Virus record (IMG/VR): IMGVR_UViG_2937142334_000003
Source: a virus
Lineage: Duplodnaviria; Heunggongvirae; Uroviricota; Caudoviricetes
Reading direction: 5' to 3' (one strand)
Length of the DNA stretch: 54,109 nt
In this document: positions 924 through 22,170 of the stretch, one piece after another
How positions within the stretch are numbered: position 1 is the stretch's first letter
Layout of the letters: the number at the start of each line of letters is the position of its first letter
Position numbers and translations under genes: made by a program
The notes under the pieces: generated by a model
Told to the model about the DNA's origin: nothing
Databases searched by the model: none
What the model saw: the letters and a program-made list of their open reading frames with translations, nothing else

Positions 924-1006
924 TAATACCTCTCTTTCTCGTTTCAACAATAATGATCATATCATGGACGTGCTTATTTTCGGGCCTTTTTAACAAATTT
1001 CTGAGA

Positions 1007-1678
1007 TTATTTCCAATAAGTAATCCGAATCTTAGGCTTTTTCCAACCATCTGCTGATCCCGCATACCATAAGTATCTGACTCCCGCTGTATCACCAGCT
1101 CGACACGTAATTCCTTTAACACTACCGTCTCTAAAGTTATCTCCAACCCAATTTGGAAGGGTTATCCATTGTCCCTGATCTCTTCTGCTATACCATGCGC
1201 GAGCAACTCCAAAATTGGTTTCAGAATACTTAGATTGCCACCCCGGTGCATTGTGGAGGCCGAACACTCCTTGTCCACCGTTATAATTCATAGAATGAAG
1301 ACAATGCATATAAATTTCGACTTTATCTATTTTGGCTCCTCGAAGTGTATTTTGAATATTACCCCAGTCAAAGTAGATTTGAGCGCTTTCATCGCCCCAA
1401 TCATAGGAGTCATGATACGGACGGTAACAGCCTTGTGTTGGACGATCTGGTCTAACTAAAGCCGACCATCCTTTAGCAGCTCCCCATGACCAGAACGACT
1501 GTACACCGGTACATTCCCAGGTCGTAATTTTACGCTCCTCCAGTAGGTTCAACCATTCATGACCATTCCAAATTCTTGCACGTGGTGGAATCCATGTATG
1601 TCCATTGGAAATGCGAACATTGCCACCACCAAGTTTAATCCACTCTCCGTTGGCTCCTCTATATTTTACAAATGGCAT
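1007..1678 (-). CDS. Putative tail tip / receptor-binding-associated protein
   Basis: 223-aa Trp/Gly-rich ORF directly after a tail fibre gene; short N-terminal 'VKYRGANGEW...ARIWNGHEW' segment typical of fibre-associated proteins. Confidence 0.55.
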   Translation of the reverse strand: MPFVKYRGANGEWIKLGGGNVRISNGHTWIPPRARIWNGHEWLNLLEERKITTWECTGVQSFWSWGAAKGWSALVRPDRPTQGCYRPYHDSYDWGDESAQIYFDWGNIQNTLRGAKIDKVEIYMHCLHSMNYNGGQGVFGLHNAPGWQSKYSETNFGVARAWYSRRDQGQWITLPNWVGDNFRDGSVKGITCRAGDTAGVRYLWYAGSADGWKKPKIRITYWK

Positions 1679-1691
1679 TTATAATCACCCC

Positions 1692-3047
1692 CTAAATACC
1701 AATCCAAACTGATCCTACGGGAATATCTCCGCTGGGCTGTTCGTCTTGCATAAATAATCTTCTATTATGATCACCGATGTAAGGAGAATGATTAAGCTTA
1801 ACCGCTTCATGATTTGCTCCAACAGCAAATTGAGCAACAACTTCAGAAGTATTCCAATTCCCAACTGCTAAAGAACCTTGATCCCAAGTTGGCTTAAAGA
1901 ATCCTACCCCTTTATCAAAGTTTCCGGTCTTTTCATCATATGTCTGGAAATTGAGTTGAGGTTCGTTAGCCCTAATCCAATGACCGCCTCCATATTGGAC
2001 AAAATTTCGATCTTGGTTAAAGGTAAATGGTGGTAATTTATACTCTTTGCCACCTGTTTGAATATGAACATCACCAATATCGGTTGCAACAACTTTAGCA
2101 GTCCAATTATTATTCTTATCAAAAACCAATCCTGTTTCTGTATTTTCGCCATCTTTAATATTGAAATGAATATTCCGTTTGTCCATTCGAAGACCGCTAT
2201 ACTTAGTATCATCGCTATTAATCTTTAAGAAACCTGAGCTGTCAATCCCATCAAGTTTATCAGCATCTAACCCCGATCCACTACCTACATTGGCTTCAGT
2301 AAATATCTTTTTACCATTAAAAGTAGGATTATCATTACCCCAAAAATGTAAGTTAGTGTCTGCATCTCCAATATGGATATTATTATTGTCGTCAATAGAG
2401 GCTAAATTGTAGTCATGACCATTCTTACCTCGAAGTTTGTATTTCGCTCCAAACTTAATTGAAAGATCACCATTAACCGTATCTCCCCACTTGAACAAAT
2501 ATCTATTGTCACTATCTTTTTTTAAGCTTTCCAACCCACTTTGTGAGTTGTCAGATACATTATTTATTTTGGAATTTAACTCATTAATTGCCCCAGTCAT
2601 ATTCTTTGAATCTGTTTGGAGTTTTGAAATATCACCAAGAATATTGTTAATATTCGTAATGGTATTTCGCAAATCAACACCGCCAGATCCCCATCCAGAC
2701 TGATTACTTCGTGAGACAGTATTTTCTAAAATTACTCCGTTAGGACTTATTACTTTATAGAAAGTCAATTCTGGATTGTTCTGATCACCAATTGATGTAA
2801 CTGTCAGAATAGATTCCTTATCTCCTGGAATGTTTCCGGGCAAACCTCCTACTCCTTTAATTCGGTACACCCCAGTATGTTTTATGTCTCTATAATCACC
2901 GCTTGTGATTAGCTTTCCCTCAAAGCCTAATTCTCTAAAAGTTCCAATTTCATTATTATTTGAATCTAGGACTCTAAGAGCCTTGTCGTCCGTTACGAAA
3001 TGATATTCATCATCTGCAACTAAATATTTTGCTCTTTTTACAGCCAT
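1692..3047 (-). CDS. Tail fibre protein
   Basis: 451 aa; knob-like segment (DIKHTGVYRI), coiled coil, GSGLDADKLDG fibre motif, C-terminal 'QPSGDIPVGSVWI' motif. Confidence 0.7.
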   Translation of the reverse strand: MAVKRAKYLVADDEYHFVTDDKALRVLDSNNNEIGTFRELGFEGKLITSGDYRDIKHTGVYRIKGVGGLPGNIPGDKESILTVTSIGDQNNPELTFYKVISPNGVILENTVSRSNQSGWGSGGVDLRNTITNINNILGDISKLQTDSKNMTGAINELNSKINNVSDNSQSGLESLKKDSDNRYLFKWGDTVNGDLSIKFGAKYKLRGKNGHDYNLASIDDNNNIHIGDADTNLHFWGNDNPTFNGKKIFTEANVGSGSGLDADKLDGIDSSGFLKINSDDTKYSGLRMDKRNIHFNIKDGENTETGLVFDKNNNWTAKVVATDIGDVHIQTGGKEYKLPPFTFNQDRNFVQYGGGHWIRANEPQLNFQTYDEKTGNFDKGVGFFKPTWDQGSLAVGNWNTSEVVAQFAVGANHEAVKLNHSPYIGDHNRRLFMQDEQPSGDIPVGSVWIGI

Positions 3048-3061
3048 TTAATACCCTCTCT

Positions 3062-3451
3062 CTACTCTAGCGTTAATGTATTATCGGTTAAATTTCCACT
3101 ATCATCTGCAAATTTAGTAACGCCACCAGTTAACTTATCTTTATCTTCATCGTTAACAACCAATGTTTTCTTTCTTGTTGATCCAGAAGATCCAGTGACA
3201 ATTAGCTCAGCACCATTCCCATACATATCGCAAATTTGAACTATATCGTCTTTACTTACCCAATCATGTAAGTGTTCTGGTAATGTACATGTTTTTTCAG
3301 TGTCATTCACTCTAACAATACATTTATATCCGGCAGGGTCTTCCACCACAACACCAGTTTGAAATTGAGGTCCTGAATTACGTTGTGCTTCATGCTGAGC
3401 TATTGTTCGCATGGCTTCTAATAATCCTTTTTGTTGTTCGCTAACTTCCAT
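3062..3451 (-). CDS. Hypothetical tail/baseplate protein
   Basis: ORF in tail operon; start moved to the ATG at 3451 (MEVSEQQ) behind GGGGTGG RBS. Confidence 0.55.
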   Translation of the reverse strand: MEVSEQQKGLLEAMRTIAQHEAQRNSGPQFQTGVVVEDPAGYKCIVRVNDTEKTCTLPEHLHDWVSKDDIVQICDMYGNGAELIVTGSSGSTRKKTLVVNDEDKDKLTGGVTKFADDSGNLTDNTLTLE

Positions 3452-3461
3452 TCTTCCACCC

Positions 3462-4196
3462 CTAATCAACTATTTGAATTCGATGAATATCTGGATGAAA
3501 TTTATAGTTAGCATATTCTTTAGGAACAACAATTAAATTATGATATGGGAACCAATAATCACTTGCAGCACCTATAGTTGGCTTTTGACCTTGATTATCT
3601 TTTTTAGCAATAAATACTAAATCTAACGGGCGCCAACTTTGACCTTCACGAACGGACACGGCATCACCAGCCTTATAGCTAGTAGCTCCATTCCATTCAC
3701 CCTTAAAAATAGCATTTAATCCTATATCACCCTTGTCACCCTTACTAGATGCTCTTCTATAATGATCGGAATCATTATCTGGTGTATGTTGCCTATCCGC
3801 TACCACATCTTTTGTAACAATATATAGCGCACCTTGATATGTTATAAGATTATGTTTCTTAAACTTCTTCGTTGCGTCCCATTCACCTACATAATCAAAA
3901 TCGTTAACGTAGGTATCCCATTCTTTCTGCTTTTCAAGAATATACTTTCTTACATTCCCATCAAAGAATGTCTCAATTTCTACAATTGCGTCCTGAAGTT
4001 TATTCATGGTTTCAGGTGTAATCATATAATCTTGTAGTTGGGCACTTAATGCGGAAATTTGATTTTGTTCATCATTTGTTAGTGTTGTCTTTTGTTTTAA
4101 TCTCTGCAATTCTAGTGCATTTGCAACTTGATTTGCCGGAAGATCAAATAATTCTCTAAATACATCTATCTTTTGCGGAAAAGTAGATCTCGACAT
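3462..4196 (-). CDS. Tail/baseplate protein with carbohydrate-binding-like W..Y..GD.V repeats
   Basis: 244 aa; GEWDATKKF..NLITY and GEWNGATSYKAGDAV motifs, short GDKGD collagen-like linker. Confidence 0.55.
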   Translation of the reverse strand: MSRSTFPQKIDVFRELFDLPANQVANALELQRLKQKTTLTNDEQNQISALSAQLQDYMITPETMNKLQDAIVEIETFFDGNVRKYILEKQKEWDTYVNDFDYVGEWDATKKFKKHNLITYQGALYIVTKDVVADRQHTPDNDSDHYRRASSKGDKGDIGLNAIFKGEWNGATSYKAGDAVSVREGQSWRPLDLVFIAKKDNQGQKPTIGAASDYWFPYHNLIVVPKEYANYKFHPDIHRIQIVD

Positions 4197-4243
4197 TTAA
4201 TACAACTTCCTCTCATATGTATTAATGTCCTCCTCAATAAAAT

Positions 4244-6340
4244 CTACTCGTCGAACTTAATTTTAAATCCTAATGAATCAGTTGTTGCCGTCTGATTGTT
4301 AAACACATCTTCTGGACTAAGTGGCCTGTCATATAGATTAAGCATATGATTTCCACCAATAGAACATGTGTCTACATCTGTAGGATCATTTAAGAAATCC
4401 CAAATTGGCATCTTTTGCATTTCATCAATTACCTTATCGAAGATTTGACCTGCCGATTCAGTAATAGGTAATGCTTTGTATAGAAAGTTCAAATTTAAGT
4501 TACTTTCTTTTTCTAGTCGCTGAAACATGTCATGAATACCTTTTAAGTCTCCAGCCAAATAATACATAGCACAAGCAATAAGATACGCAGCTACATAGTC
4601 ATCTGATGTACTCTCCCATGTTCCGTTTAGCTGGTTTCTAGCTCGCTTAATTAATGCTTGCTTCTTAGCTTCCCTGCTTTCAAATCCCGTTATCGTTACA
4701 TAACGATCTTTTCCACCATGAAGTAATTCTGCAAATCCTTCTTTGAACCACACAGGCATATCCATCGTCTTAACAGCACCATAGAAATCATTACAAACTG
4801 CATGAAACATTTCATGTCCGAGTACACGATCTGCATAATCACCTTTAGATCTACCAACGTCACCATTTTCATCCTTAAGATTAAGCTTTTCAAAATCTCG
4901 AAGGTCGATTTCTAGTGTTTGATTTCTGGAAGTGTTATATGCGGTTGTCTCTGCTTGCCAACCACCTTCTTCGTCAACAACAAATCGGATACTCAAGTAA
5001 TTCTTTCCATCGGCGGAAATACCATATGCATCTTTAATTCTTTCTTCGGGAAGTGACAGCCATCCTAATTTATTGATACCATTCTTGATAGCTGCAACAA
5101 TTGGCATATCTGCCTCACCATAATCTGGCTTAACAAAGTACATTTTATGAGCATCAATTGACATGATCCCATCGACATCTAAGTCAATTTGGATAGTATC
5201 AATCATATATTGATATACTTTTTTTGTTACAGGATTGGTGACCAGAATAACATCATTAGGTTGTAAGAAGTAAACTGGAGCAACATCAATACTTACTTTT
5301 TCTTGAAAATGTGCCGCCTTCCACATTTCATATCGTGCTTGAGACACACACTGTAAATCATTGGTAAGATCACTATTTTGAATAACTTTTGTTCTAGTTC
5401 CGATAGCATCTATATTAAACTCGCTATTTGTATCAGTAATTTTTACTGAACCTTTAGGTGTATAGCCTGTTTTGGTTGATGTGGACCCAATAACAACAAA
5501 TCTGTTCTTAACGTTCTTTAAGTCGTAACTTTCTTGAAATGATAGGGTGAGATCTGCTCTATCTTGTGAAGTTGCATCAAATTCCCATTTAGGCTTAGGA
5601 ATTTCTTCTTCCTTTTGAATGGGCAACTTACGATATTCAAATTGACCAAGAGAATTATAGCCACAGATAAAATCCATGTACATATCACGAAAGTCTTCAA
5701 TGATATCATTGATTGAAGTTCCCGGTTCCTTTTCGTAATCGTACTGAAGGATTTCTTCACCATTACTGGTGTACATATACCCAAAATCTGTTTCTCCCAC
5801 TAATTCCATGATTCCTCTAATAGCATCACTCATAGGTGTTCCACGCTTTATTTTGAGTTTATTTTCTAGCCCTTGGCCGTCCCATAAGGTCATTTTGTCA
5901 GCTAACGTAACTGATATTTCACGTGTTGTTTTATCAAAACGTAGAGAGGATTCGTTAACCCAAAACGTTCCTAGTAAAAAGTTAACTGCCTCCCTGGGGA
6001 AACGAGATAAATCAACAACTCCTTGATAGACTCTAAACTTCTTATCGAACCAAAAAACACTTTTGTTATTTGGCATATATGAAGGATCAACAACCATCTT
6101 CAAAGTTCCCGTTCGTCGTATCAATGAGGTTGCATCATAATTAATAGTTCCACCAGTTGTTTTTCCAGTAATAGTATCAATTATGGAGCCATCATTATCC
6201 AACACTTGAATAGTTGTTTGAAGGTTGCGAATTGGTTGTCGTAAAACACTTGCTGCTCGACCACTTACTTTTTCTTCAAGCCCATTTACAATATTCGATA
6301 ACGTTTCATTGTAATTGGGCTTTTTGTATTTCAGTGGCAT
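4244..6340 (-). CDS. Tail (hub/Tal-like, DUF5048/YomG-like) protein fused to a C-terminal gluzincin metallopeptidase
   Basis: 698 aa; residues 1-410 resemble tail hub proteins; HEMFH (509-513, nt 4802-4816) plus WFKEGFAE (E534). Confidence 0.7.
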   Translation of the reverse strand: MPLKYKKPNYNETLSNIVNGLEEKVSGRAASVLRQPIRNLQTTIQVLDNDGSIIDTITGKTTGGTINYDATSLIRRTGTLKMVVDPSYMPNNKSVFWFDKKFRVYQGVVDLSRFPREAVNFLLGTFWVNESSLRFDKTTREISVTLADKMTLWDGQGLENKLKIKRGTPMSDAIRGIMELVGETDFGYMYTSNGEEILQYDYEKEPGTSINDIIEDFRDMYMDFICGYNSLGQFEYRKLPIQKEEEIPKPKWEFDATSQDRADLTLSFQESYDLKNVKNRFVVIGSTSTKTGYTPKGSVKITDTNSEFNIDAIGTRTKVIQNSDLTNDLQCVSQARYEMWKAAHFQEKVSIDVAPVYFLQPNDVILVTNPVTKKVYQYMIDTIQIDLDVDGIMSIDAHKMYFVKPDYGEADMPIVAAIKNGINKLGWLSLPEERIKDAYGISADGKNYLSIRFVVDEEGGWQAETTAYNTSRNQTLEIDLRDFEKLNLKDENGDVGRSKGDYADRVLGHEMFHAVCNDFYGAVKTMDMPVWFKEGFAELLHGGKDRYVTITGFESREAKKQALIKRARNQLNGTWESTSDDYVAAYLIACAMYYLAGDLKGIHDMFQRLEKESNLNLNFLYKALPITESAGQIFDKVIDEMQKMPIWDFLNDPTDVDTCSIGGNHMLNLYDRPLSPEDVFNNQTATTDSLGFKIKFDE

Positions 6341-6352
6341 ATTTTATCCCTC

Positions 6353-7393
6353 TTACTTCAAATTATCTCGTTCATATAAGAATGAATTTCTATATCTAGT
6401 TCTAGATTGAATAGAACCATCTTCAGCAATATATTCCTGATTCCACTTAATATTCCCATCTTCATCGTATGTGTAGACAGATTTACCTGCATCAGCAATT
6501 AATCCCGCTTTTTCCATGGTGTTGTAATCTAATTTACCTATTTCAGTGAAATCAAATGTTACCGTAGAAATAGCTTCAAGACTTTCATCTTTCGGAGTAG
6601 TTTTAATATTATGTGTTGCACAAACAATAATATCTCCATCTTCACGACGAATTACCTTTGTTTGTCCATCATTAAGGAAGTCAATAACATTAGTTCTATT
6701 AATGTATTCGGCGTGTGGATCAATTTCGTTTTCATAACCAAATTCTTGTTGCGGAGTAAGTGGTAAGAACGAAACTGTACCAGTTCGATAGTTTGCATTT
6801 CCAAACGTCACTATTGGATATTGACCATTAAGCGGCACACTGGTACTCGTGTTAGAATTCCAAACTAAATCCGAGAACTTGAAGTCGATGTTCATTGAAT
6901 AATTCGAACCTAGATTAGAAATAAAGGAGCCATAAAACTTGCTATCAATTGGTGGGCCAACTTGTAAGTCACCTTGAATTTCATTGGCTAATGGAACAAC
7001 TGCATATTCATATGTTTTGCCATTTTCAATGAATCTATCAACTACCGTATAAAGGTTATAATGGTCATCATAATCAAATTGCGCTACTAATTGCCAATCC
7101 GTATTCGTGCTCATGTATTCTCGACGATAACATTGTATTTTGGTGACAATATGACCAGCTCCGTCAATACTCCCAGCTTCAAGAGAATTATTAAACTTAG
7201 CGTCCATAATAGTTTTCAGATTCCATTGAGCTGGTTTGGTTTGTGAATCATCTAAAGTTGTATCCACACTAATAAACATTTCATCATACATTCCAGCCCC
7301 CATCATAACCTCGTCAATCTCAGAGGTTGGAATAGGGGTGTCATAAAATTGTTGGTCAAATCCATAGTTAAAATAATCGACACCTATAATCAA
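6353..7393 (-). CDS. Tail tip / distal tail component
   Basis: 346 aa, TTG start with GAGG RBS; position downstream of tape measure; Ig-like 'YEYAVVP' strand. Confidence 0.55.
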   Translation of the reverse strand: MIIGVDYFNYGFDQQFYDTPIPTSEIDEVMMGAGMYDEMFISVDTTLDDSQTKPAQWNLKTIMDAKFNNSLEAGSIDGAGHIVTKIQCYRREYMSTNTDWQLVAQFDYDDHYNLYTVVDRFIENGKTYEYAVVPLANEIQGDLQVGPPIDSKFYGSFISNLGSNYSMNIDFKFSDLVWNSNTSTSVPLNGQYPIVTFGNANYRTGTVSFLPLTPQQEFGYENEIDPHAEYINRTNVIDFLNDGQTKVIRREDGDIIVCATHNIKTTPKDESLEAISTVTFDFTEIGKLDYNTMEKAGLIADAGKSVYTYDEDGNIKWNQEYIAEDGSIQSRTRYRNSFLYERDNLK

Positions 7394-7411
7394 AAGACCC
7401 TCACCTCTTCA

Positions 7412-9043
7412 CTATTTATATTTTTGTAAATAATCATTGTAAAGCTCTTGAAGACCATCTAATGTCAGCTTAGTATCATTAAAATCAATTACTTCACGTA
7501 AAATAAAACTATATACAAGGCTGTATTGGGTTAGTTTCAATCGACCATCATCAAGCGTCATAGCACCACTTTTAATCTCCGATAAGGTATCATTAATTCT
7601 TTGCTCATATTCGGTACGATAGATTTCATACTTAGCTTCAGACTCACGTTCTGCCTTTGCTAATTCCTTCCAGTAGTTAATCATTTCAGTATTTTCAAAG
7701 TAGTCCCAATATTGGTCGTCAATTTCCATCACTCGATCGCGTAGTTCATTTTGTCCTAAAATACGTGCTCTGGCGTCAGATATTGCTTGCTCTACCTTAG
7801 TGATGTATTGTTGCCAATGTTCATCGTGGATTTGTTGGAGCCTTTGTCTTGCAGCGTTAATTTTTGCTTCTGCTGCGTCTATCATTTGTTGAGTTTCTTT
7901 AGTTATTTCACCGTACTGAGACAATTCTTCTCTGGATAACTCTTCATTCCAATCATCATCTTTGAATGTCTGATCAGGAACTATCTTTATTTCAACTCGA
8001 TATTCCTTAACATATACAAACATATAGAAAGGACGCAGTTTTAAATCCTTAATTACATTAGAACGTGTCCTGGATTTAATCTGTCCAAATTCTTTTTCAC
8101 AGGTAATATAATCATCATGTTTATAGAACTTTATATGCTGTCCTCTATCTTCGGCTGGCGAGAAGTCTAGGAATAATCCATTCTGAACATTCATTACCCA
8201 GAACTTTCCGATCCAGTCACTCGCTTTTGCCATTGCTAACTTGGTATAAATTAAAGGATTTTCTTTTGGCACAAAAACATAGTCATCTTTCCAATACGTA
8301 TAATTGTCAGCATTATCATTCTTCCGTTTAGGAATGTAGGCACGAGCTGACGTTCCCAACAATTGTTTTAGGAAAAGGTCAACAACTATTTGTCCGTCAT
8401 CTTTATTCATTGTTGGCTGAATAATACCCGATACAGATGGCGTGATATATTGAGCGGTAAACTCTTGAAGTTGCTCATAAATAATTCCGTGCTCTGTTAC
8501 TACCTTCAATCCAATGTAATATAATTTACCTTTTTTTATATTTGAAACACGTTCTGAAAATCTTGTTGGAGAATTTCTTTCCGGCTTCCGAATTGGATAT
8601 TTAACTAAAGCAACATGTCTTTGATCGTAAAGAGTATATTGATATGACGTAACAGGCTCATTTTGTGCTTGCGTATAAATAGCCGACATTAATACATCAT
8701 TCGTATAGATAAATTGATGTTGGTCAATCGTATCAAATAGAATTCGTGGTGTTGTATAACACGTAAATTTAATCTCTGGTGACCACTCAGAATAGCCATC
8801 TTTGAGTTTAACGCGAACTTTTGCTAGATATGCCGTGCCATTGTTCAGAGTTGTACCTAGTAAAATGTGGTTTTTATCTAGCGACACTTGATCCTTTTCA
8901 TAGACAGGTTTTGTTCCCGGTCCATCTTCACGAATTGATAATGTATTCGTTGTCGTATGCTCTGCGCCCAAATACGTAAACGTGAATGTATATGAATTCT
9001 TCGCATCGTAATTAGACGCCTGATTTAGTATTGGTTGCGTCAA
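7412..9043 (-). CDS. Distal tail protein-like (YomH-like) with C-terminal coiled-coil extension
   Basis: ORF track 7412..9082; start reassigned to TTG at 9043 (MTQPILNQ) behind AAAGGAG RBS; first structural gene after tape measure. Confidence 0.55.
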   Translation of the reverse strand: MTQPILNQASNYDAKNSYTFTFTYLGAEHTTTNTLSIREDGPGTKPVYEKDQVSLDKNHILLGTTLNNGTAYLAKVRVKLKDGYSEWSPEIKFTCYTTPRILFDTIDQHQFIYTNDVLMSAIYTQAQNEPVTSYQYTLYDQRHVALVKYPIRKPERNSPTRFSERVSNIKKGKLYYIGLKVVTEHGIIYEQLQEFTAQYITPSVSGIIQPTMNKDDGQIVVDLFLKQLLGTSARAYIPKRKNDNADNYTYWKDDYVFVPKENPLIYTKLAMAKASDWIGKFWVMNVQNGLFLDFSPAEDRGQHIKFYKHDDYITCEKEFGQIKSRTRSNVIKDLKLRPFYMFVYVKEYRVEIKIVPDQTFKDDDWNEELSREELSQYGEITKETQQMIDAAEAKINAARQRLQQIHDEHWQQYITKVEQAISDARARILGQNELRDRVMEIDDQYWDYFENTEMINYWKELAKAERESEAKYEIYRTEYEQRINDTLSEIKSGAMTLDDGRLKLTQYSLVYSFILREVIDFNDTKLTLDGLQELYNDYLQKYK

Positions 9044-9080
9044 CCAATTCAGCTCCTTTCTTTTTATTTTTGATATGTAC

Positions 9081-9102
9081 AACCAAGAAGTAAATCTTGG
9101 TT
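9081..9102 (-). terminator. Hairpin after the membrane-protein cassette
   Basis: AACCAAGA-N6-TCTTGGTT perfect 8-bp stem; no clear U-tract. Confidence 0.45.
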
Positions 9103-9127
9103 AAATTAAATATGTTTACGTTATGAA

Positions 9128-9649
9128 TTAGTCTATGTTAACTGATGTAGTTTTATGGATTTCACCTGGCAACTCTTCATTTTTATTGTTGGAATCATAA
9201 CTTCCAATCCAATTCTCACCCTTTTTTATCTGATGTGAGTAACCATCATCAAGATCACCAGTTCCAATAATTAATTTATTCCCATCTTTTACAATATATT
9301 TCTCAGCCCTATCAGAGAATTCCTTATTGTATTTATCTTTATTATTCAATATTTCTTTTACTCGTTTTATTCCACCATTGTGCTGATAGACAGTAACCAC
9401 CTCGTTTCGATGTTCTTGGTTACCGAAAATATAATAGAACGTACCTTCTGTCCAAGGTCCTCTATACGGTTTTTCTCTAAAATGATATTTATAAACCTTG
9501 TTTACTAAAGGATGTTCTGTGTAAAACTGTTGTTGTTCCCTATACTGGTCTATAAAATCTTTTCCACCAGCAATCGCACATATTAGTATAAGAAAACAAA
9601 GAACAGTCATAATTTTATGGTCAATCATAAACTCTTTTATTTTTTTCAC
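9128..9649 (-). CDS. Moron-like membrane-anchored protein (possible superinfection exclusion)
   Basis: GTG at 9649 behind GGAGG; one N-terminal hydrophobic helix (IMTVLCFLILICAIAGG) followed by a soluble domain; inserted between tape measure and distal tail gene. Confidence 0.6.
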   Translation of the reverse strand: MKKIKEFMIDHKIMTVLCFLILICAIAGGKDFIDQYREQQQFYTEHPLVNKVYKYHFREKPYRGPWTEGTFYYIFGNQEHRNEVVTVYQHNGGIKRVKEILNNKDKYNKEFSDRAEKYIVKDGNKLIIGTGDLDDGYSHQIKKGENWIGSYDSNNKNEELPGEIHKTTSVNID

Positions 9650-9738
9650 TTTTAATTCCTCCATAGAACAAATAATGTACCTTTAACATATTCCCATATC
9701 TAATACAGAAAAGGAATAAAAGATTAAAAATTATGTAC

Positions 9739-9766: not shown

Positions 9767-12700
9767 CTACATTTTCTTCGTTGCGTATTGTTTTGCTACT
9801 TGAGGTAATGTCTTAAGAGCCTCTGCAAAATCATTGGCATCCTTAACATTAGGTAATTCAAGATTGATAGTATCGATATGAACCGATTTATCATTTCCAT
9901 CACCATATGCATTGCGAATACCATTTGGTAGATTAAGAGCTTCTCTTAATTGCTTTCCAAAAATCTCGCCTAGATCTTTTGATACAGCTTTAAACTGATC
10001 TCCAAATCCTTTAACGATTGTTTCATAGCCTTGTGTTACCTCTGGCTTAACGCTTCGTTTGTAATCATTAATTATGTCGCTATTCTTCTTTTCATAGTCA
10101 TTGTAGGCTTTGATAATATCCTCAACTTTTGCAATATCAAAAGTAGGAATATCTTTAAGAATAAACTTATATGAATCATTTAACTGTTCGAGCCGTTTTC
10201 GAGCTTCTTCCTGATTAATCGAACCGTCTTTGATACTATTAATAGTTTCACTGACTTTTTGAATGTAATCATTTCGGTTGGAAATCTTAGACTCTTCAAG
10301 AGCTTGTTTTGCAGAGTTGACAGCTCTTTGTGCCTCTTCTACATTTGCTTGGTCAGCAATGTATGTCCAGTTAAACTTGCCGTCCTTATCTTTTTCAAGG
10401 TAACGGACGTCTTTTTTATTTATAGTGTTATCAAGTTTTTGTTGAGCAAGTGCCAAATCAAGTTGCTTGTCAACGTAATCAGCTTCCGCCTTAGACATTC
10501 TCTCTTGGGCGTCGAGAGCAGCTATACGTTTTTCAACCGTCTTATCTTCCAACTCAACAATCTTTAACCGCATTTCCTCAAGACGAAGTTCTTTTTGCAT
10601 GGGGTTATACCATACATCTTGGTCAAACTTAGCCTGATCAGCAGTCATTCCCTTGTTAACGCTCTTTTCGAATTCCTTTTGAATGGAGTCAAGAGTTTGG
10701 CCAAACTCGTTTTTACTTATATCCATAAGCGAAGACATAGTGCTATCAAGTGAAGTTTGATATTCGTCAATCATTGCCTTCAATTGATTGTATTCATAGG
10801 AATTCTTTTCGTATCCAGATAATTCGTCCCGAAGTCTTTGAAGCAAATCAAGGTAATTATTGTACTCACGGTAAGTGGAAGCATATTGCTGATTTATAAT
10901 GGCCGCCTGAGTAGAACCCTCTAAGTGAAGGGTGTCGGCAATACTTACCAAAGTACTTATTGTGTCACTAGCACGTTTATACTCATCAATTTGCTTATCA
11001 ATAAGAGACTTTTCATACTCAAAACGATTCTTAACAGCGTCCTTAATGCTATTTTGGGCATCAATAACATTCTTTTCGTACTCTGCAATTTGGTCAGTTA
11101 TCGTTTTAAGCTGTTCAGTAGTCATATCTGGATTCTTAGCTTGTTCACGTAAATCATTGATCGCCTTTTGATCGGCTTCAATCATGGACTTGTAAACTTT
11201 TTCCTGGAGTTCTAATTGCTTATAGATCATTTCAGAATTAATTGCTTCTTTTTGTTCAGCAGTATTAGCTTTGCCCATTAAACGGTTGTACTCAGCCTTT
11301 AATTCATTCATTTCTTTCTGATAAGCAATTGAGGACTGTACATACTCTTGGTTATGAGTAAGATTAGGAACTTCAATCTTGTCAGATTCAACAGATACAT
11401 TGTATTTAACATCAATAGCTCCAACTTCATTACGCGTACCTCTAGCATAGTTAATTGCCATCGAAAGCATATCGTTATACTTTTGTGCCTCAATTTGAAG
11501 TTGATCATTAGCTACTTGGGCTGTTCTATCAACATTCTTTCTCGCAAATTGATCTAGAGCATTATCTAATTGACGTTCTAATGAAATCTTGTCGGCGACA
11601 CTCTTTTCATAAGCAGATTTTTGATTGAGGTTAACAACATCAAAATTACTACTCATAAGGTCGTTATAAGATGTTCCACTTAATAAACCATCTTGAAGAT
11701 TTGTTACATTATTCTTTAGCCGGTCAATACTATTGCTGAGGTTATCAGTATATTTAGACAAGCTTTCAATAATAGAATTAAGTTGAATATCACGAATACT
11801 CTTCTTCAATTCATCAATAGAATCAAGATTTTCCATGATCGCATCACGAATTTGACTTAAGGAATCAGCTAAATTCTTTGCATTATCGGCATCTTTTGTA
11901 CCAACAAAATTAGCAACACTTAATTGATTAAATTCAGCCAACAACTGTTGAACCGCCTCGGACTTAGCATAGATCTGATCAGAATCATTCTTTAACTTCA
12001 TACGATAATCACTATCTTCTAGTGAATTACCTTCACGTTCAAGAATATTTTTCTGATTATCAATAGCAGTAGTCACAAGCTCTAATTCACGTTGTAACTT
12101 TTCAACCATCTTTTGATCTTTAGTGTTGTTGTAATCTTGTTGATTCTTACCCTGTTGCCAAATATCTGTTTGCAACTCATCAATCTTCTTTGTAGCCTCA
12201 GAAAAGTTTTGATAAGCAGTTTGATATTTACCAAGTAATTCATCAACTTTACTTGCATTATCACCTGTAATATCCCTTGCATGGTTCAGATTAGTAATCT
12301 GATTCCCATTTGTTTGGAAACCATACTTATGCAATTCATTAAGTACATCAGTAATTTGTTGCTGGTAGGCGCCCTGCATAGTTCTTTGATATGCAATTTG
12401 CTTATTATCTAAGTCAATTCTCTGCTTTGAAAGATTAATAAGTTTGTCCATGTCTTCATCAGCTTTAGTTACTGCATTTTCAAGGTTTTGAACTTTTTCA
12501 TCAAGTGGCAAGCCTGTGTAAAGTTCATTCCCCATGTAACGCCAATAATCTTCGCTAACTTTTTGGGTAGAATCAGAACGATCCGTTGTGGCAATTCCAC
12601 TTACTTTGTCACCATTAGTTGCAGAATTTGTATCAACACCCATATTAGCAGCACCATTATCTACGGCCATATTCATAGCGGTATTTCCTGCAACGACAGA

Positions 12701-15700
12701 CATAGAAGTCATAGGACTGACTGGCTGTGAATTTTCTGGGGTAATAGCCATTGATTTGGACTTGCTACTCTTACTACTTACCGTAGTTTCATTCTTTACA
12801 ACATTAATATGGACTGTTTTATCAGGGATACGTGCTAAAGCACCTCTAACTTGGCTAATGCCGGCCATTGCTGCACCAACATCGGCTTTAATATGAATAG
12901 TTTTATCCTTCAAAGAGTTTCGAGCAGACTTAACTCTATTAATTGGACCAGTAGCATTATCGTTAGCTGTTATAGTAATAGCCTTATCATGAAGAGCAGA
13001 TAAAGAACTCTTAACTTGATTAATTACTTGCTGGGCATTTCCAGAGGCGGTGATATTAATCTTTGCGTGAATTCCACTAACAGCACCCTTAATCTTTGAT
13101 ACTAATCCACTAGTATCAGCAGATACTTTTACTTTGGCATTTATGCCATGGACAGCACTGGTAATCTTACTCTTCAAGCTACCAGTATCAGCATCGATTT
13201 TTACTTTTGCCTTTGTATTTTTACCTATACCTTTAAGCTTACTTTCTGCACCTTTTGTATCTGCGTCAACTTTCACTTTAGCTTTGGCATTTTTCCCAAT
13301 ATGTTTTATTTTGCTTTCAGCACTCTTAGTATCAGCATCTGCTTTAACTTTAACTTTATTGTTTTTATTTCTGCTAAAGGATTTAAGTTTTTTATCTATT
13401 TCTTTTGTGTCGGCGCTAACTTTAATTTTCGCCTTATTGTTTTTACTTTTACTTAATGTTTTTAGTTTCTTCTCAACGTCTTTTGTATCAGCATCAACCT
13501 TAACCTTAGCCTTACTTTTGCCTTTGCCAAGATCTTTAACTTTCTTTTCGGCAGATTTAGTGTCGGCATCAACTTTTACTTTGTTGTTTTTACCACCCTT
13601 ACCAAAAAGTTTATCTAAGGATGCCTTCATACCTTTAATTGGGTCATTCTTACTTCCCTTAAAAAGGTCTCCCAAACCTTTAGGCATCTTCCAGTTTTTA
13701 AATGGATTAGTCATTCCCTTAGGTAGCTTAAAATTCTTAAATGGATTATTAAGCCCTTTTGGTATTTTCCGATTTTTGAACGGATTCGACATGTTTTTAG
13801 GCAAATTAAAGCCTTTGAGGGGGTTCTCTAATCCCTTAGGAAGTTTCCAATCTTTGAACGGATTTTTGAGGTTAAGACCCTTAAATGATTTACTAATGTC
13901 AGGCATTTCAATATTCTTAAAGGCCTTACCTATATCGGGCATCTTAACACCCTTAAACATTTTAGAAAAATCGGGCATTTTACCTTTTAGTCCATCGAAC
14001 ATCTTAGATGGGTTAAATTTCCTAAAAATATTAGGTAATTTGGCACCTTTTATACTTCCATCGGTACCTGCAACTCCTAACTTCATTCCTCCCGTTAAGA
14101 AGCTTTTCCAATCAAAATCTTTTGAGCCATTCTTAACATTCTTCATAAAGTCTTGAAGTTGCTTCTGACCTGCTCCAGTTTTCATATTCCCTAAATTCTT
14201 AAAGAATTTTGATGCCTTAGTAAGTGAATTCTTTCCAGGTGCTTTTTGCTGGTACCATGGTTTGTCGTCTTCTTTGTTTTCTTTTTGGCTTGATTGTTTT
14301 TTAGGCTTATTTCTCTCTCTTCCACGTGAATCTAATTCTTTATCATTATATTTTTGCGCATTGTCTCTTTGCTGTTTTGCTTTCTTTGAGCCTGTTTTGC
14401 CAAAGAAACCATCATTATATAATTGATCAAGAATATCATCTGTCGCTTTTTCCCCATGATTCTTCCTCAGGTTCTGAATAGCATCTTTAACATCTTTGTT
14501 CTTAGTATTACCTTTATTTAACCTAAGCATTAATTGAGCATAACTCAATCCTCTTCCAAATTGCGCGTCACTTTTAATGCTCCCATCGCCCAAAGCATTT
14601 ACTAAGGAATAAGGGTCACTAGAACCTTTTACACCTTTTAAATCAGAAATAAAGTTAGGTAGATTCAACTCCCCTTTTGAATTCATCCAATTATATCCCT
14701 GGAATTGCTTGGATTTCATCATCATAGACCCTTCAATTCGAGCCTGTTGAGTTGTATCTAGAACACCTTGATCATTTATTAATGCTTGTGCAGCTGCCGT
14801 TGGATGCCCTTGCAAGTATTTCGTATTTTGTTCCATGACGGCATTCCATGACTTTCCATAAGTAGCATAAAAGTCAGGATCAACATTTAACAGTTCTCTA
14901 CCATTAATTTGGTTACCCATTATATTGACAAATGATGCCCCAGATCCGTCATACGCTTTAACTCGCTTCTTTGCTGCTGTCGAAGAATAACCATTGGCCT
15001 CCAAGATATCCTGCATTGTTCCTTGTTGTTTTTTTAGGTTATCCTTAAATGACTTTTGAGCGTTATAAAATGCTTGGATTTGATTTGCATTCCATTCTCT
15101 TGTCTTTGAAGAAATTCCCTCAAGTCCTTTAACGTTCTTTGCTAAATACTTTTGCTGATCTTTAGTCAATGTTAATTGATTCTTACCAAGATTGTTATTC
15201 TTATTCATAATCTTATTAACATCGTTCCAGATCTTATTTGCTCGAGCAGCAGCCTGAAGATTAACTGACTGCGCAGACTGCACCTTATTTAATTGTCCTC
15301 TGGTCATTCTTCGATAATCAGACTTATCAAAAACACCAGAGTTTATAGCAGAAGATAATTTCTTATATTGCCCTCGAATGGCATCTCCATAATCCTCATA
15401 ATTCTGCGCCCATTCTTGATATTGTTCAGAATTTCTTGCCTTATTTAACGCCTTAATTCTAGCTTCAGATTCTTTTTTGTCATATTTCCTATCAATATCC
15501 GACGCTTTTGATGGAAGAGAATTATATTTGTCATCTTTACGTTGTTTCTCGAGCCGTCTTTGCTCTTTAAGATATTCATTATTAGATTTGAGAATCTTCC
15601 CTCTTTGTTTTTCCCAATCTAATTCTTTGCCAGCTTTATTCTCCTTGTCAATATCCTTTGTGCCAGCCTTAAGCTGCTCCATATTAACATCGTGAATTGC

Positions 15701-18700
15701 TGACTTAAGATCATTCCATTGACTCCGTAATAGTTCAATATTATTAGTATCTGCTCGAAGTTTAAGTCCATTCGCTTTAGCTATAGAATTAAATTCTTTT
15801 CTAAACTTACTCCAGTCCTGCTTTGAAAGTTGATTAGAACCATCTGTTACCCCGTCTAAAGCTTTCTTCAGTCCTGTTAGACCCTTTGTAGACTTCTCGG
15901 CCGTACCATTAAAAAGTACATTTTTTTGTAGATTCCCATTTGTCTCAGATATGGTACCGTGTATCTTCTGCATAGACTTATCAAAAGCTTCTGCGTTAGC
16001 CTGAGCCGGTTTGATTGCATTCTGGATCAATTTCCATGGATGAACACCCATCATTTCTAAGGCTCCTGATGCAATAGTAATCGCATCAATACCTAAACCA
16101 ACGACGCCAAGTCCACTACCAATTACTCCCAGTACACTACCAGCAACACCCATGACTTTTCCTAATTTAGCAGTTGCTTTAGTTCCTTTAGAAAGAGTCC
16201 CATTGGTGTCTTTTAGTTTTTGTTCTGCTCTACTAATTGCAGGAGTAACATTTGAATATGATTTTGCTAAATCTTCATTCTCTTTTGCAAGTTCCTTTGG
16301 AGCAAAATGAGTTGGATACTTCTTAGATAGACCATATTGTCTTCGGGCTCCACGTCTAGTTTGGAGGACGTTATTCTCTGGAATAGAGTATTTAATTAAA
16401 CCTACGTCTTTACCTGTATACTCTCCCTTGGTTCTTCCTTTTGCATCTCTATCTAGCTTTGTTTTTGACTTAAAACCTTTGGCGTTTAAGCCATCTAATT
16501 CTGCTCTTAATTCACGAATTTTTGCCCTTAATTCAGAAACAGAACTTCCAACATTGGTGAATCTAGATTTAAGACTCTCGATTCCTTTTCCAGCATTTCC
16601 AATACTTGCAAAGCTTTTAACCATTCCCGTTATTGCATTACGTGCCATAACTATACCAGCAGTGATTGCACCCCATCTAATAGCTTGCGAGAATAGCTTA
16701 TTTGAAGCAAGTTTATCTGCGATAGATCCGATGCCATTAAGACTTTGAAGAATTTGGGAAATTCCTTCTCTACCACCAGAGATATTATTTAAGAAGGACA
16801 TCCATGTATTCTTTAATGAAGCTAGTTGGAATTCGATTGATTGTTTCTGTTTTTCAAATTCTTGATATGCAGAACCATGATCTTTATCTTTTAAATCAAC
16901 CTGAGCTTGTGCTTCTTTCATGGCTTTACGCGCGGTTTTCCAATTATCCATTGTAGCTTGGAAAATGTTAGCATGGTTCGCTCCAGCGGCATATTGGGCA
17001 GCGGTGTTTTTGTCTTTACTATCTAACTTATCCCATTGCTTACCTAACTGATCCATAATTTGCCAAGTAGATTTCAACTTTCCATTGCTGTCAGTTAAAT
17101 CAACACCCAACTTCTTAAAGAACGCTGCACGGGTTTGATCCTGCTTTGTTAATCCAGCACCCATTTTAGCAAGACGTGAACCAATCGTCTTATATGCGGT
17201 TCCAATCATATCTCCACCCGCACGAGTACCTTCTTGAGCAGCTGTAATAATACCTGTTAGTTGTGAGAACTTAGTTCCAGTAGCACCAACTGTTGAACTA
17301 GCTTTCTGATATGCAGCCCCCAAGTCATTCATTTCAATGGCATGTTTGTTAGAAACTTGGTTCATTGCGTTAATAATATCTTTGGACTTAATACCTTCTT
17401 TTCGGAAAGCTTTCATTGGCACAGACATATACCTAACCATGTCTTCTACAGGCACTTCACCAACGAAAGAACCCATAACTGACGCCTTTGCAAGACGATT
17501 TGATTGTTTAAGATTATATCCGGCTGTTGCCCATTGTTCTACAGCAGCAGCAAATTCTGGAGCAGTCTTACCAACTTCCGAAGCATCCTTATAGATATTC
17601 TTCTTCCATCTATTTACTGCTGCTTGACTGTCGGGAACAACTTTTGTAACTTTTGTAATGGCCTTATCAACTTCATTTAAGCCATTTACAACAGCAGCGG
17701 CTCCATATACACCATTTTGTAATACGTCCCAAGTGTTTAAGGTATTCACCATACCCGTAAAGGACTTTCTTCCTCGGCGTGCTTTTGCATCTGCTCGATC
17801 TGCGGCCTGAGCTCGCGTCATTCTAATTCTTGCGTCAGAAGCTTCTCTTAGATCTGATGCTTGAGATGCATACTTTGTTTTCCTTATAGCACTTTCAAGA
17901 GATCGCACCTTCTTTTCTGCCGCCCCAGCTTGTCTCTGAACTTCGGCAAATACATTGTCGCCTAAACCACCTTTTGCCAGGGTCATTTGCGCTTTAGTGA
18001 CGTCATTTAATGCACTTTTATATCTCCTAAAGGCTTCTGCGTCTCTTTTTAACTGTTGTTCAATTTCAGTGTTCTTGAGAGTCATGCGAGCTTTGGGTTG
18101 TTCTCTGAAACCAAGAACATTTTTACTAATTTCTGAATCACTCAAGCCAGCCTTATTCGCAGCCATTCTATACCGCATTTCAGCTTGCTCTTGTTGTTTA
18201 GCAACTTGGCTAGCATAATGTTGTATATTTTGTCGAATACGTTCGTCACTAGCCTTAGCAGCCTGATTTTGGAGCTTTAAATACTCTTGTTGTGCTTTTT
18301 CAATAGCACGCTGTTGTGTTCGCATTTCCTTTTGCACATCAACCGCTGCTCGAGAATAATGACTTCTCGGGTTAGTATTCTCTAACTCTTTATTGGCTTT
18401 TCGCCGTGCCTCTTCGATGGACTTATCAAAGTCATGTCCACCCATATCAACGTTTAACTTAATTGGTTCATTTGCTAAACGTCTAATTTCTTTTAATTTA
18501 CTGGACACCCGATTTAATTCGGACATTCCATGTACTTTAACATTTGCGTTTACTCTAAAGTTTTCTTTACCAAGAGCATTTCTTAGTTGGCGTTTGAGAT
18601 TGCCAAGTTTGCCAACTTTTAATTTTACATTTGCGTCAACCTTAATATCCTTTAACCCACGAAGAGAACGTTGAATCTGATTTTCAATTTCTCCTGCTGT

Positions 18701-18745: not shown

Positions 18746-18844
18746 TATATTTCACCCGCCTAAAAGAAATGATTTTGCGTTTGTACCATTCTTCTGCGGT
18801 TTAAATTATAAAATTGTTAATTAAAACTTTATAAAATGGATATT

Positions 18845-19885: not shown

Positions 19886-20410
19886 TTATGCGCCAGATAC
19901 TTCAAACCCAGCAGCACGCAGAGCATCAGCAAGGAGTTTAGGAATTATTTCTACATATTTAGAAAAAGCATTATCAAAATAGTGAGTACCTTGATGTGGA
20001 ACAAGTCCGCCACCACCATAGTTAAGGTATGCTGGCATTTCGTCATTGAATGGCTGAGACTGTACCCCCATATGTATTCCCCAGCTTTCAATTCCACCCC
20101 AGTCTCCATTTGCACTATTTCCTGTGCTAGGAGGACTCATACTCATGCGAGAACCATCCATTTCAATAGATAAACTAGTCCCACCACCCGTTACATTGAT
20201 GGCATCTACTAACTCACCAGTTGAAACGTATCCTGGAGAAGCCCGACCTGCCGGCCAATCTTTCTCAACTAATTCTCTTAATATTTGATCTGCTACTTTT
20301 CTTATTTCACCCTGAAGCGCCTTAATACTTACAGAGCGAATTTCTCCTGCCAATCCTTCTAGGCCACTTATGTCTACGGTTAAAGTACCTTCAATAACAA
20401 AACTAGACAT
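19886..20410 (-). CDS. Hypothetical virion/tail protein
   Basis: 174-aa ORF in the tail operon; its native RBS is displaced by the IS607 insertion. Confidence 0.6.
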   Translation of the reverse strand: MSSFVIEGTLTVDISGLEGLAGEIRSVSIKALQGEIRKVADQILRELVEKDWPAGRASPGYVSTGELVDAINVTGGGTSLSIEMDGSRMSMSPPSTGNSANGDWGGIESWGIHMGVQSQPFNDEMPAYLNYGGGGLVPHQGTHYFDNAFSKYVEIIPKLLADALRAAGFEVSGA

Positions 20411-20417
20411 AATAACC

Positions 20418-22071: not shown

Positions 22072-22102
22072 AATATTCACCTCACATTTCCTTTCTGCGA
22101 AT

Positions 22103-22111
22103 ATTATATCA
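22103..22111 (-). promoter_or_regulatory. Extended -10 promoter in IS left end
   Basis: TGATATAAT upstream of the tnpA RBS. Confidence 0.55.
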
Positions 22112-22170
22112 CTTTTGATTATATTTGATCACATTTTATTTAATCATTAATAACCTCCTTGTTTAAAATC

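Follow-up and report, generated by a model that had tools for sequence, protein, structure and literature searches.

Organization of the locus

The analyzed window is a 54,109-nucleotide stretch of a Caudoviricetes genome (IMG/VR record IMGVR_UViG_2937142334_000003), belonging to a large Limosilactobacillus reuteri phage-plasmid. In this window, a tail module is encoded on the minus strand, in which the tape measure gene is followed by three genes, then by a gene for a 698-aa hub (Tal) protein with a C-terminal protease domain, and finally by a fibre-like gene and three further tail genes (Table 1). The same gene order was found in related loci and in Bacillus and L. reuteri plasmids. The upstream 346-aa and 556-aa proteins could not be identified from PHROGs, Pfam, PDB sequences or the ESM Atlas, hence no Dit could be assigned.

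Table 1. Features of the tail hub gene and of its neighborhood (positions in the window).
Position (strand)	Feature	Supporting evidence
4244..6340 (-)	Whole gene, 698-aa tail hub (Tal) fused to an M101-type protease, stop codon included	ORF list and translation; all homologues are 694-709 aa with the same architecture
6347..6352 (-)	Shine-Dalgarno GAGGGA, 6 nt upstream of the ATG at 6340	Read directly from the sequence
5141..6340 (-)	Residues 1-400, predicted gp27/Mu gp44-type baseplate hub (Tal) domain, including Pfam DUF5048 at residues 306-400	DUF5048 E 1.2e-10; phrog_1887 "tail protein" E 1e-44; Foldseek matches at E down to 1e-15
5111..5140 (-)	Residues 401-410, short, lower-confidence linker between hub and protease	Mean pLDDT 65 in the full-length model, against about 90 on both sides
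4247..5110 (-)	Residues 411-698, flagellinolysin-type (MEROPS M101, M9-like) predicted gluzincin peptidase domain	NF033876 match; AF2 model; structural and profile matches to ColT and ColG
4802..4816 (-)	HEMFH (H509, E510, H513), two zinc ligands and the general base	Invariant in three alignments across tail and flagellin forms; present in 110 of 110 full-length tail fusions
4715..4750 (-)	WFKEGFAELLHG (W531-G542), Glu helix with the third zinc ligand E534 and the "basement" residue A537	E534 and G535 invariant, A537 at least 90% conserved; aligned by profile to the WF(D/E)EG(S/T)AEF stretch of ColG and ColT; E262 and A265 of FliA(H) in the same arrangement (PMC5595980)
4595..4597 (-)	Y582, Tyr 48 residues after E534, candidate transition-state-stabilising residue (catalytic role inferred)	Invariant in the three alignments; aligned by profile to the collagenase Tyr-containing segment
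4352..4372 (-)	DTCSIGG (residues 657-663), C-terminal motif shared by tail-borne and flagellin-borne domains	D/T/G positions at least 90% conserved across both architectures, showing that the whole ~285-aa module is shared and not only the zinc site
9767..18745 (-)	Tape measure protein, 2992 aa, upstream in the same operon	Pfam PhageMin_Tail E 2e-26; PHROG tape-measure families
6353..9664 (-)	Three genes of unknown function (178, 556 and 346 aa) between the tape measure and hub genes	By tblastn, the 556- and 346-aa genes are syntenic with the hub gene in nearly all related loci that reach that far; the 178-aa gene is matched only in the closest relatives; no informative family, PDB or Atlas match
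1007..4196 (-)	Four downstream tail genes, a 244-aa fibre-like protein with a CBM5/12-like segment, then 135, 451 and 223 aa; probably the receptor-binding set	phrog_26419 tail fibre E 1e-34; CBM_5_12 E 3e-5; Bacillus homologue of the 451-aa gene annotated "pyocin knob domain"; syntenic in nearly all related loci that extend that far

An earlier note, made from the sequence alone, had described at 4244-5107 a tail protein fused to a flagellinolysin-like zinc metallopeptidase, with the motif YADRVLG-HEMFH-AVC followed by a downstream Glu. This observation was confirmed, these coordinates covering the stop codon plus residues 412-698. One small correction is that it is the Glu itself (E534) that lies 21 residues after the second His, whereas the motif WFKEGFAELLHG starts 18 residues after it.

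Sequence homology and predicted folds

The C-terminal region matched the NCBIfam flagellinolysin model (NF033876) with E values of 1e-36 to 6.6e-36 over residues 417-694, corresponding to profile positions 44-316 of 384, which is far beyond chance. The same match recurred in the reference element. However, the score (124.6-127.3 bits) was below the curated equivalog cut-off of 205 bits. Apart from the same tail-fusion architecture and its fragments, nearly all of the best hits were bona fide flagellins carrying Flagellin_N and Flagellin_C, at 30-39% identity. In contrast, Pfam found neither Flagellin_N nor Flagellin_C in the 698-aa protein, for which the whole-protein scan gave only DUF5048, and a phmmer search with flagellin termini hit none of the tail proteins. 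Therefore, the protein is not a flagellin or a flagellinolysin proper, although it carries the same peptidase domain.

The fold of the N-terminal 400 residues was predicted to be that of a gp27-like hub, with Foldseek E values of 6e-16 to 1e-9 to Mu gp44, the MuSo2 43-kDa tail protein, T4 gp27, VgrG1, 80alpha Tal and NF5 Tal, and a TM(target) of 0.70-0.73 for the gp44-type proteins. Because the Foldseek search with the full-length model was dominated by the hub, the C-terminal domain was folded and searched alone. This AF2 model was very confident (pLDDT 95.8, pTM 0.93) and agrees with the thermolysin-like two-subdomain fold of gluzincin metallopeptidases (clan MA(E)), with an active-site helix and a Glu helix, its helices 104-121 and 131-142 carrying the zinc-site motifs. 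Its best matches among solved structures were ColT (Z 11.9, 231 residues, 4.1 A), ColG (Z 11.5), lugdulysin (Z 11.1) and Grimontia collagenase (Z 11.0), followed by M1 gluzincins, the first 13 rows being gluzincins of families M9, M30 and M1 with Z from 8 to 11.9. In line with this, Foldseek returned ColH at a probability of 0.97, and a profile search against PDB sequences hit ColT (E 4.5e-4) and ColG, at E 4.5e-4 to 1.5e-3, aligned on the Glu helix. A single-sequence search of PDB sequences gave only chance-level hits, while Pfam Peptidase_M9 (PF01752) scored 14 bits (E 0.032), below its gathering threshold of 26 bits and over residues 111-182 of the domain only. These results indicate a distant relationship with M9 collagenases and not membership. 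The relative orientation of hub and protease is uncertain in the full-length model (pTM 0.66), so that exposure of the active site in an assembled trimer remains an inference. Pfam and NCBIfam scans of the whole protein and of the C-terminal domain gave only DUF5048, the weak Peptidase_M9 match and flagellinolysin, and no recognisable peptidoglycan hydrolase domain (M23, CHAP, NlpC/P60, lysozyme or transglycosylase).

Conservation, distribution and origin of the fusion

The residues H509, E510, H513, E534 and Y582 were invariant across tail and flagellin forms, even at 33-35% identity, and all 110 full-length tail fusions keep HExxH and the Glu. The domain is under strong purifying selection, as illustrated by a dN/dS of 0.02-0.12, the same as for the hub. 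It is also as conserved as the hub, with a mean identity of 52% for the protease against 50% for the hub. We also looked for hub relatives carrying a different C-terminal module. Every near-length relative found had the same ~700-aa architecture or was a truncated copy of it, whereas more distant hubs such as phrog_1887 members, considered as a family and not individually, end after the hub.

Using IMG/VR, GTDB contigs and PLSDB, the syntenic tail module was found in 33 IMG/VR loci and in 11 complete plasmids, on 100-148 kb phage-plasmids of Lactobacillales and Bacillus. In trees that were unrooted or midpoint-rooted, the tail-borne domains formed one clade (SH-aLRT 92-95) next to Bacillaceae flagellins, which suggests a single domain capture. 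No collagenase outgroup was added, as 10-14% identity would not root the trees reliably, and the direction of transfer is hence not proven. The same module is also carried by other surface-displayed scaffolds, namely RTX/BapA giant adhesins and a collagen-like phage fibre.

The nearest L. reuteri genome, which is 99% complete, has no Flagellin_N match, and its only NF033876 match is this tail gene. Therefore, the name "flagellin" given by RefSeq to these tail proteins in non-motile lactobacilli, enterococci and vagococci is a misannotation. A megablast search with the gene and a tblastn search with the C-terminal domain gave no match among 50,697 GenBank phage records, and a Foldseek search of the domain against BFVD viral models found nothing at E <= 1e-3, only weak generic zincin hits. 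Likewise, no paper containing "flagellinolysin" in the library searched mentions phages. In the papers that were read, related elements were described simply as plasmids or a "chromid" and production of virions by this element was not documented. However, the 100-148 kb "megaplasmids" or "chromids" of Limosilactobacillus, Ligilactobacillus, Vagococcus and Bacillus that carry this gene look like phage-plasmids.

A putative protein-cutting enzyme at the tail tip

From these results, the gene is best explained as encoding the tail-tip hub protein of a siphovirus-type phage-plasmid, ending in a complete and, as judged from its sequence, catalytically competent zinc endopeptidase domain of the flagellinolysin family (probability of about 0.6). 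The two predicted folds, the homology, the intact catalytic residues, the strong purifying selection and the fixation of the fusion across a 100-148 kb phage-plasmid lineage of Bacilli rest directly on the computations. In contrast, catalytic activity, location in the virion and substrate are inferred, as nothing has been measured for any tail-borne member. In this view, the hub would trimerise at the distal end of the tail, placing three protease domains at the very tip of the virion, where they would hydrolyse polypeptide barriers on or around the host during adsorption or penetration. Candidate barriers are wall-anchored surface proteins, proteinaceous biofilm matrix or mucus, which would be cut with the broad specificity measured for flagellinolysins, which prefer large hydrophobic P1' residues. 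This would clear the way for the separate receptor-binding proteins encoded downstream and for DNA ejection. Flagellinolysins are Zn/Ca-dependent, broad-specificity endopeptidases that are active when displayed on a filament (PMC5595980, PMC7643111), and the loss of activity upon mutation of the HExxH Glu to Ala has been shown only for FliA(H) and HgrFlaMP. The module was most likely captured once from a Bacillota flagellin hypervariable region.

The interpretation given in the earlier note was supported, since the resemblance to flagellinolysins that it proposed is real homology, the gluzincin fold is predicted with high confidence, the N-terminal part and the gene position are those of a tail protein, and the suggestion that the fusion may be undescribed agrees with the literature and GenBank searches. 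The targets that it proposed (S-layer, surface proteins, biofilm or mucus proteins, peptide cross-bridges) remain inferences, peptide cross-bridges being the least likely of them.

Other roles were considered, all of them less likely. The domain could be a peptidoglycan stem-peptide or cross-bridge endopeptidase, functionally analogous to the M23 or CHAP domains of other Tal proteins and locally opening the wall for DNA ejection. It indeed occupies the position of tail-associated lysins in other Gram-positive siphophages, and Pfam detected no peptidoglycan hydrolase in the tape measure protein, the 2279-aa protein or the other tail genes scanned, so that such a role would fill an otherwise empty niche. 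However, characterised members of the family cut L-polypeptides, preferring large hydrophobic or aromatic P1' residues, and digest casein and flagellins (PMC7643111, PMC5595980). Moreover, no wall peptidase is among the closest solved folds, and the domain stays conserved across hosts of different peptidoglycan chemotypes (Bacillus meso-DAP direct links versus Lactobacillus Lys-D-Asp), making this possibility unlikely. Still less likely, the protease could act in cis or within the virion, trimming the hub, the tape measure protein or another tail protein during assembly or ejection. Recombinant H. gracilis flagellinolysin shows self-digestion and terminal trimming (PMC7643111), Tal of TP901-1-like phages and the S74 chaperone domains of fibres are precedents for self-cleavage, and the hub encloses the tape measure C-terminus in known tails. 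Nevertheless, a full substrate-binding domain of about 285 aa under such selection across very divergent phages is more than a one-off self-cleavage needs, and the same module works on external substrates on flagella (PMC5595980). Besides, the tape measure C-terminus is poorly conserved among relatives (39-86% identity, undetected in distant loci), hence a conserved cleavage target there is unlikely.

A catalytically silent domain, serving as a binding module or structural cap, appears doubtful as well. Many Tal C-terminal extensions are purely structural or receptor-binding and no activity data exist, but the catalytic residues and the basement Ala are kept even at 33-35% identity, binding modules normally diverge faster than the hub whereas the protease is slightly more conserved, and separate fibre/RBP-like genes follow downstream. 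The least likely target is the host flagellum, as a reflection of the origin of the domain in flagellins. H. gracilis flagellinolysin degrades flagellins of another species (PMC7643111) and the Bacillus hosts of the basal branch are flagellated. However, this route is refuted for non-flagellated hosts such as L. reuteri, given the absence of flagellin in the nearest genome, and the domain is nonetheless under strong purifying selection in the Lactobacillales branch.

More tentatively, and somewhat less likely than not, the domain may be an active "protein depolymerase" of broad specificity, stripping wall-anchored surface proteins, proteinaceous matrix or mucus so that the phage can reach its receptor, a class of virion enzyme not yet described for the Tal position. 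By extension, the flagellinolysin module would be a portable weapon that bacteria and phages mount on any surface-exposed scaffold (flagellar filament, RTX adhesin, phage fibre, tail hub), hinting that flagellinolysins themselves act on other microbes' surfaces. Virion-borne enzymes at the tail tip are known as glycanases or peptidoglycan hydrolases. A conserved, apparently active endopeptidase of a protein-degrading family at the hub would add proteins to the barriers that phages digest on entry. It would also give the first functional clue from a second, independent scaffold to what flagellinolysin-type proteases are for, a question open in both published studies. The domain is also a small candidate enzyme, predicted to be well folded, that can be expressed and assayed directly.

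Comparison with known systems

The flagellinolysins (FliA(H) of Clostridium haemolyticum and HgrFlaMP of Hylemonella gracilis), so far described only as proteolytic flagellins, share with the tail-borne module homology from end to end, HExxH, the Glu 21-25 residues later, the basement Ala, an invariant Tyr, the IDxxDF and DTGSIGG motifs, and display on an extracellular polymeric scaffold (PMC5595980). However, the D0/D1 helices of flagellin are absent here, the module being a C-terminal extension of a tail hub instead of an insert in a flagellin. About three copies would sit on each tail tip against thousands per filament, and the host of this element has no flagella. The tail-associated lysins of Gram-positive siphophages, such as TP901-1/Tuc2009 Tal with its M23 peptidase, 80alpha Tal and NF5 Tal, similarly combine an N-terminal gp27-like hub with a C-terminal enzymatic extension, downstream of the tape measure gene and presumably at the distal tail tip. 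Here, the predicted enzyme is instead a gluzincin endopeptidase of a protein-degrading family, and three unassigned genes separate the tape measure and hub genes. The clostridial and Vibrio collagenases (MEROPS M9: ColG, ColH, ColT, Grimontia hollisae collagenase) are the best solved-structure matches and share the WF-EG-AE Glu helix, but at only 10-14% sequence identity, without any collagenase-type accessory domain detected by Pfam and with nothing suggesting collagen specificity. Finally, virion-associated depolymerases (tailspike or tail-fibre glycanases and lyases) are likewise tail-borne enzymes that would degrade a host-surface barrier before irreversible binding, a shared logic that is inferred. 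In the present case, the predicted substrate is polypeptide rather than polysaccharide, and the enzyme is carried by the central hub instead of side spikes and is conserved across the lineage rather than swapped with host range.

Sequence of the gene

The minus-strand ORF found at 4244..6340 was translated into a protein of 698 aa, and its ATG is preceded, at a distance of 6 nt, by a GAGGGA ribosome-binding site located immediately after the stop codon of the upstream gene. The C-terminal part contains YADRVLG-HEMFH-AVC, which brings (i) H509, (ii) E510, and (iii) H513, followed by WFKEGFAELLHG. The Glu (E534) is found 21 residues after the second His and A537 lies three residues further on, which is the same layout as the E262/A265 pair described as third ligand plus hydrophobic basement in FliA(H) (PMC5595980). 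The earlier note had placed this domain at 4244-5107, a stretch covering residues 412-698 plus the stop codon, and its observation was found to be correct. Its reading of the gene as a tail protein fused to a flagellinolysin-like zinc metallopeptidase was supported by the analyses described below, whereas the target of the enzyme is a matter of inference.

Positions of the features considered in the window and in two related loci
Sequence	Position (strand)	Length	Feature
Window	3-950 (-)		HNH endonuclease ORF (phrog_559, E 6e-121), abutting the end of the tail module and running off the window end
Window	1007-9664		Region compared with L. reuteri p53608_1-like records (mosaic)
Window	4244..6340 (-)	698 aa	Tail hub (Tal) fused to a predicted flagellinolysin-type peptidase domain
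Window	9767-18745 (-)	2992 aa	Tape measure protein
Window	18845-19873 (-)		Tyrosine-recombinase (Phage_integrase) gene inside the tail operon, directly upstream of the tape measure gene
Window	20410-22160		IS607/TnpB insertion next to the tyrosine-recombinase gene
Window	24435-31274 (-)	2279 aa	ORF between the major-tail-like gene and the tape measure region; no Pfam match at E <= 1e-3
Bacillus velezensis pBvelV314_2 (related locus L064)	locus 14955-16288		Pycsar effector plus cyclase pair, directly after the tail and lysis genes
L. reuteri FN041 plasmid, NZ_CP102426.1 (related locus L065)	locus 14715-18897		Very large GDSL-type esterase/lipase gene, following the tail module and a LysM protein

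A C-terminal domain related to flagellinolysins

A Pfam scan of the C-terminal domain gave nothing above threshold, Peptidase_M9 scoring only E 0.03 and 14 bits against a cut-off of 26. In contrast, NCBIfam NF033876 (flagellinolysin) matched residues 417-694 at E 1e-36, covering profile positions 44-316 of 384. An exhaustive phmmer search of 1.84 billion cluster representatives then returned 210 relatives at E <= 1e-3. The best dozen have the same tail architecture of ~700 aa or are fragments of it, while most of the others are proteins of 500-1100 aa in which the domain starts near residue 140-330. Pfam and phmmer showed that the latter carry Flagellin_N and Flagellin_C, and they are therefore true proteolytic flagellins. 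Named examples from GTDB genomes are flagellins of ~620 aa from Sporosarcina, Niallia, Metabacillus, Peribacillus and Virgibacillus, which align over essentially the whole module at 32-35% identity (E about 1e-37 to 1e-41). In joint alignments of tail-borne and flagellin-borne domains, H509, E510, H513, E534, G535, G542 and Y582 are invariant, N517, D479, D482, D504, R505, W531 and E538 are invariant or nearly so, and the distal DTGSIGG motif is also shared. Hence, the whole domain, and not just the zinc site, is common to both architectures.

The fold of this domain was then predicted. An AlphaFold2 model of residues 400-698, built with an alignment of 82 sequences, reached a mean pLDDT of 95.8 and a pTM of 0.93. 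When the model was compared with 48,161 PDB representatives using an aligner independent of Foldseek, ColT ranked first (Z 11.9, 231 residues, 4.1 A), followed by ColG (Z 11.5), the M30 protease lugdulysin (Z 11.1), Grimontia collagenase (Z 11.0), and then M1 aminopeptidases at Z 8-10. Foldseek agreed only weakly, with ColH at probability 0.97 and E 0.02. A profile of the domain hit the ColT and ColG sequences at E 4.5e-4 to 1.5e-3, aligned on the WF-EG-AE helix. This is in line with the published view that flagellinolysins are remote relatives of M9 collagenases and form MEROPS family M101 (PMC5595980, PMC7643111).

The N-terminal part and its genomic context

Residues 23-398 matched phrog_1887, annotated as tail protein, and residues 306-400 matched Pfam DUF5048. 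The model of the full-length protein (pLDDT 85) matched Mu gp44, the MuSo2 43-kDa tail protein, T4 gp27, VgrG spikes, hubs of contractile injection systems, and siphophage Tal proteins (80alpha, NF5, Bxb1 and T5), with E-values reaching 1e-15 and a TM normalized by target of 0.70-0.73. A major-tail-like protein with an Ig-like segment is encoded upstream, and no sheath was found among the proteins scanned. Therefore, the particle is probably a long-tailed siphovirus, of which this protein would be the Tal. According to the usual relation between tail length and residue number, the size of the tape measure protein implies an exceptionally long tail of several hundred nm. Its C-terminal 500 aa are only 39-86% identical among relatives whose hub block is far better conserved.

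Three unassigned genes (178, 556 and 346 aa) separate the tape measure gene from the hub gene, and no Dit could be identified among them. Downstream of the hub gene lie a fiber-like protein with a CBM5/12-like segment and three more tail genes, one of which has a Bacillus homologue annotated as pyocin knob. Receptor binding therefore seems to be provided by other proteins. Two relatives carry further genes next to this module. The Pycsar pair of the B. velezensis element indicates that this phage-plasmid encodes an anti-phage defence system, while the GDSL-type esterase/lipase of the L. reuteri FN041 plasmid, a close relative, may be a second virion or lysis enzyme and lies beyond the end of the window.

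Distribution and evolution of the fusion

Word-based searches returned about 110 clusters (90% identity) of the same architecture of 694-709 aa, originating from Limosilactobacillus, Liquorilactobacillus, Enterococcus mundtii, Vagococcus and Dolosigranulum, on contigs of up to 100-135 kb. In IMG/VR, 34 contigs with a relative were found, most of the long ones being 100-145 kb, and in 33 of them the block 556-346-hub-244-135-451-223 keeps its order wherever the locus reaches, down to 35% identity. PLSDB holds 11 plasmid records of 108-148 kb, most of them circular, including plasmids of Bacillus velezensis and B. wiedmannii with the same tail module. The hub gene of plasmid p53608_1 (138,515 bp) of L. 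reuteri ATCC 53608 encodes an identical protein, although the window shares only 42% of its k-mers with that record. Compared with p53608_1-like records, the block from the 556-aa gene to the 451-aa gene is 99-100% identical, whereas the flanking 178-aa and 223-aa genes are only about 60% identical and the tape measure C-terminus 84-86%. The window is therefore a mosaic relative, and this pattern suggests recent recombination around a conserved tail-tip cassette. Published descriptions treat these elements as plasmids or as a chromid (PMC4667477, PMC4165912). L. salivarius pMP1046B (129,218 bp), which carries the hub gene, was published as a putative chromid, but these elements look like phage-plasmids.

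All 110 full-length tail fusions keep HExxH and the Glu. For unsaturated pairs, dN/dS is 0.02-0.12 in the protease, the same as in the hub. The protease is slightly more conserved than the hub (52% against 50% mean identity) and is the more conserved part in 29 of 41 homologues, i.e., it behaves like a core enzyme and not like a swappable host-range module. In maximum-likelihood trees, a single origin is required for the tail-borne domains (SH-aLRT 92-95), the Lactobacillales branch is nested among Bacillus-type members, and the nearest flagellins include those of Bacillaceae. As the root of these trees is not known, a single capture of a Bacillota flagellin insert by a Bacillales phage is the most economical reading but is not proven.

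Possible role of the tail-borne protease

What the computations establish is a Tal hub fused through a short linker (pLDDT about 65) to a complete gluzincin domain, in which every catalytic residue known from flagellinolysins and collagenases is present and which is under strong constraint. The location of the protein in the particle and its activity are, instead, inferred: three copies would sit at the distal tail tip and hydrolyze polypeptides. Characterized flagellinolysins are Zn/Ca-dependent and promiscuous, with a preference for large hydrophobic or aromatic P1' residues (PMC5595980, PMC7643111). Besides, the same M101-type module was found outside flagellins and tail hubs (proteins designated P0183, 3430 aa; P0215, 2900 aa; P0142, 907 aa; P0214, 1249 aa; P0218; and P0231), namely in giant RTX/BapA-type adhesins with Big_6 and HemolysinCabind repeats, in a protein with an S-layer SbsC domain, in a collagen-like protein of the phage-fiber type, and in proteins with phage virion-protein C-termini. 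In this view, the adhesins, the S-layer-domain protein and the phage fiber would all be surface-exposed scaffolds facing external substrates. Cleavage of host surface proteins or of proteinaceous matrix during adsorption or penetration is therefore the reading that we favor, with a probability of about 0.5-0.6.

Other roles could be considered but appear unlikely. Cleavage of wall peptides, the least improbable of them, would fit the Tal position and the lack of another detected lysin domain. However, it fits poorly both with the specificity of the family and with the conservation of the domain across hosts that have different peptidoglycan chemotypes. Internal processing of tail proteins is more doubtful, and a silent binding module is slightly more doubtful still. 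The cutting of flagella, ranked last, is excluded here, because the nearest L. reuteri genome (99% complete) has no Flagellin_N match and its only NF033876 match is this gene.

Comparison with known systems

In the library searched, the papers on flagellinolysin that were examined for the word, including the two primary studies, do not mention phage, and DUF5048 appears in no paper. No GenBank phage record contains the domain, and BFVD has no close model of it. Tail-tip enzymes are already known as a kind, and the protein works, as inferred here, like a Tal carrying an enzyme; what differs is that this enzyme is homologous to flagellinolysin. The protein is nevertheless not a flagellin, since it has no D0/D1 domains and scores below the equivalog cut-off of the flagellinolysin family. 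Hence, the product name flagellin, given by RefSeq/PGAP to this tail hub protein in Limosilactobacillus, Ligilactobacillus, Liquorilactobacillus, Enterococcus and Vagococcus, and seen among others in record NZ_CP102426.1, is a misannotation. Besides, it is neither a member of Pfam M9 nor a Tal of the peptidoglycan-hydrolase type.
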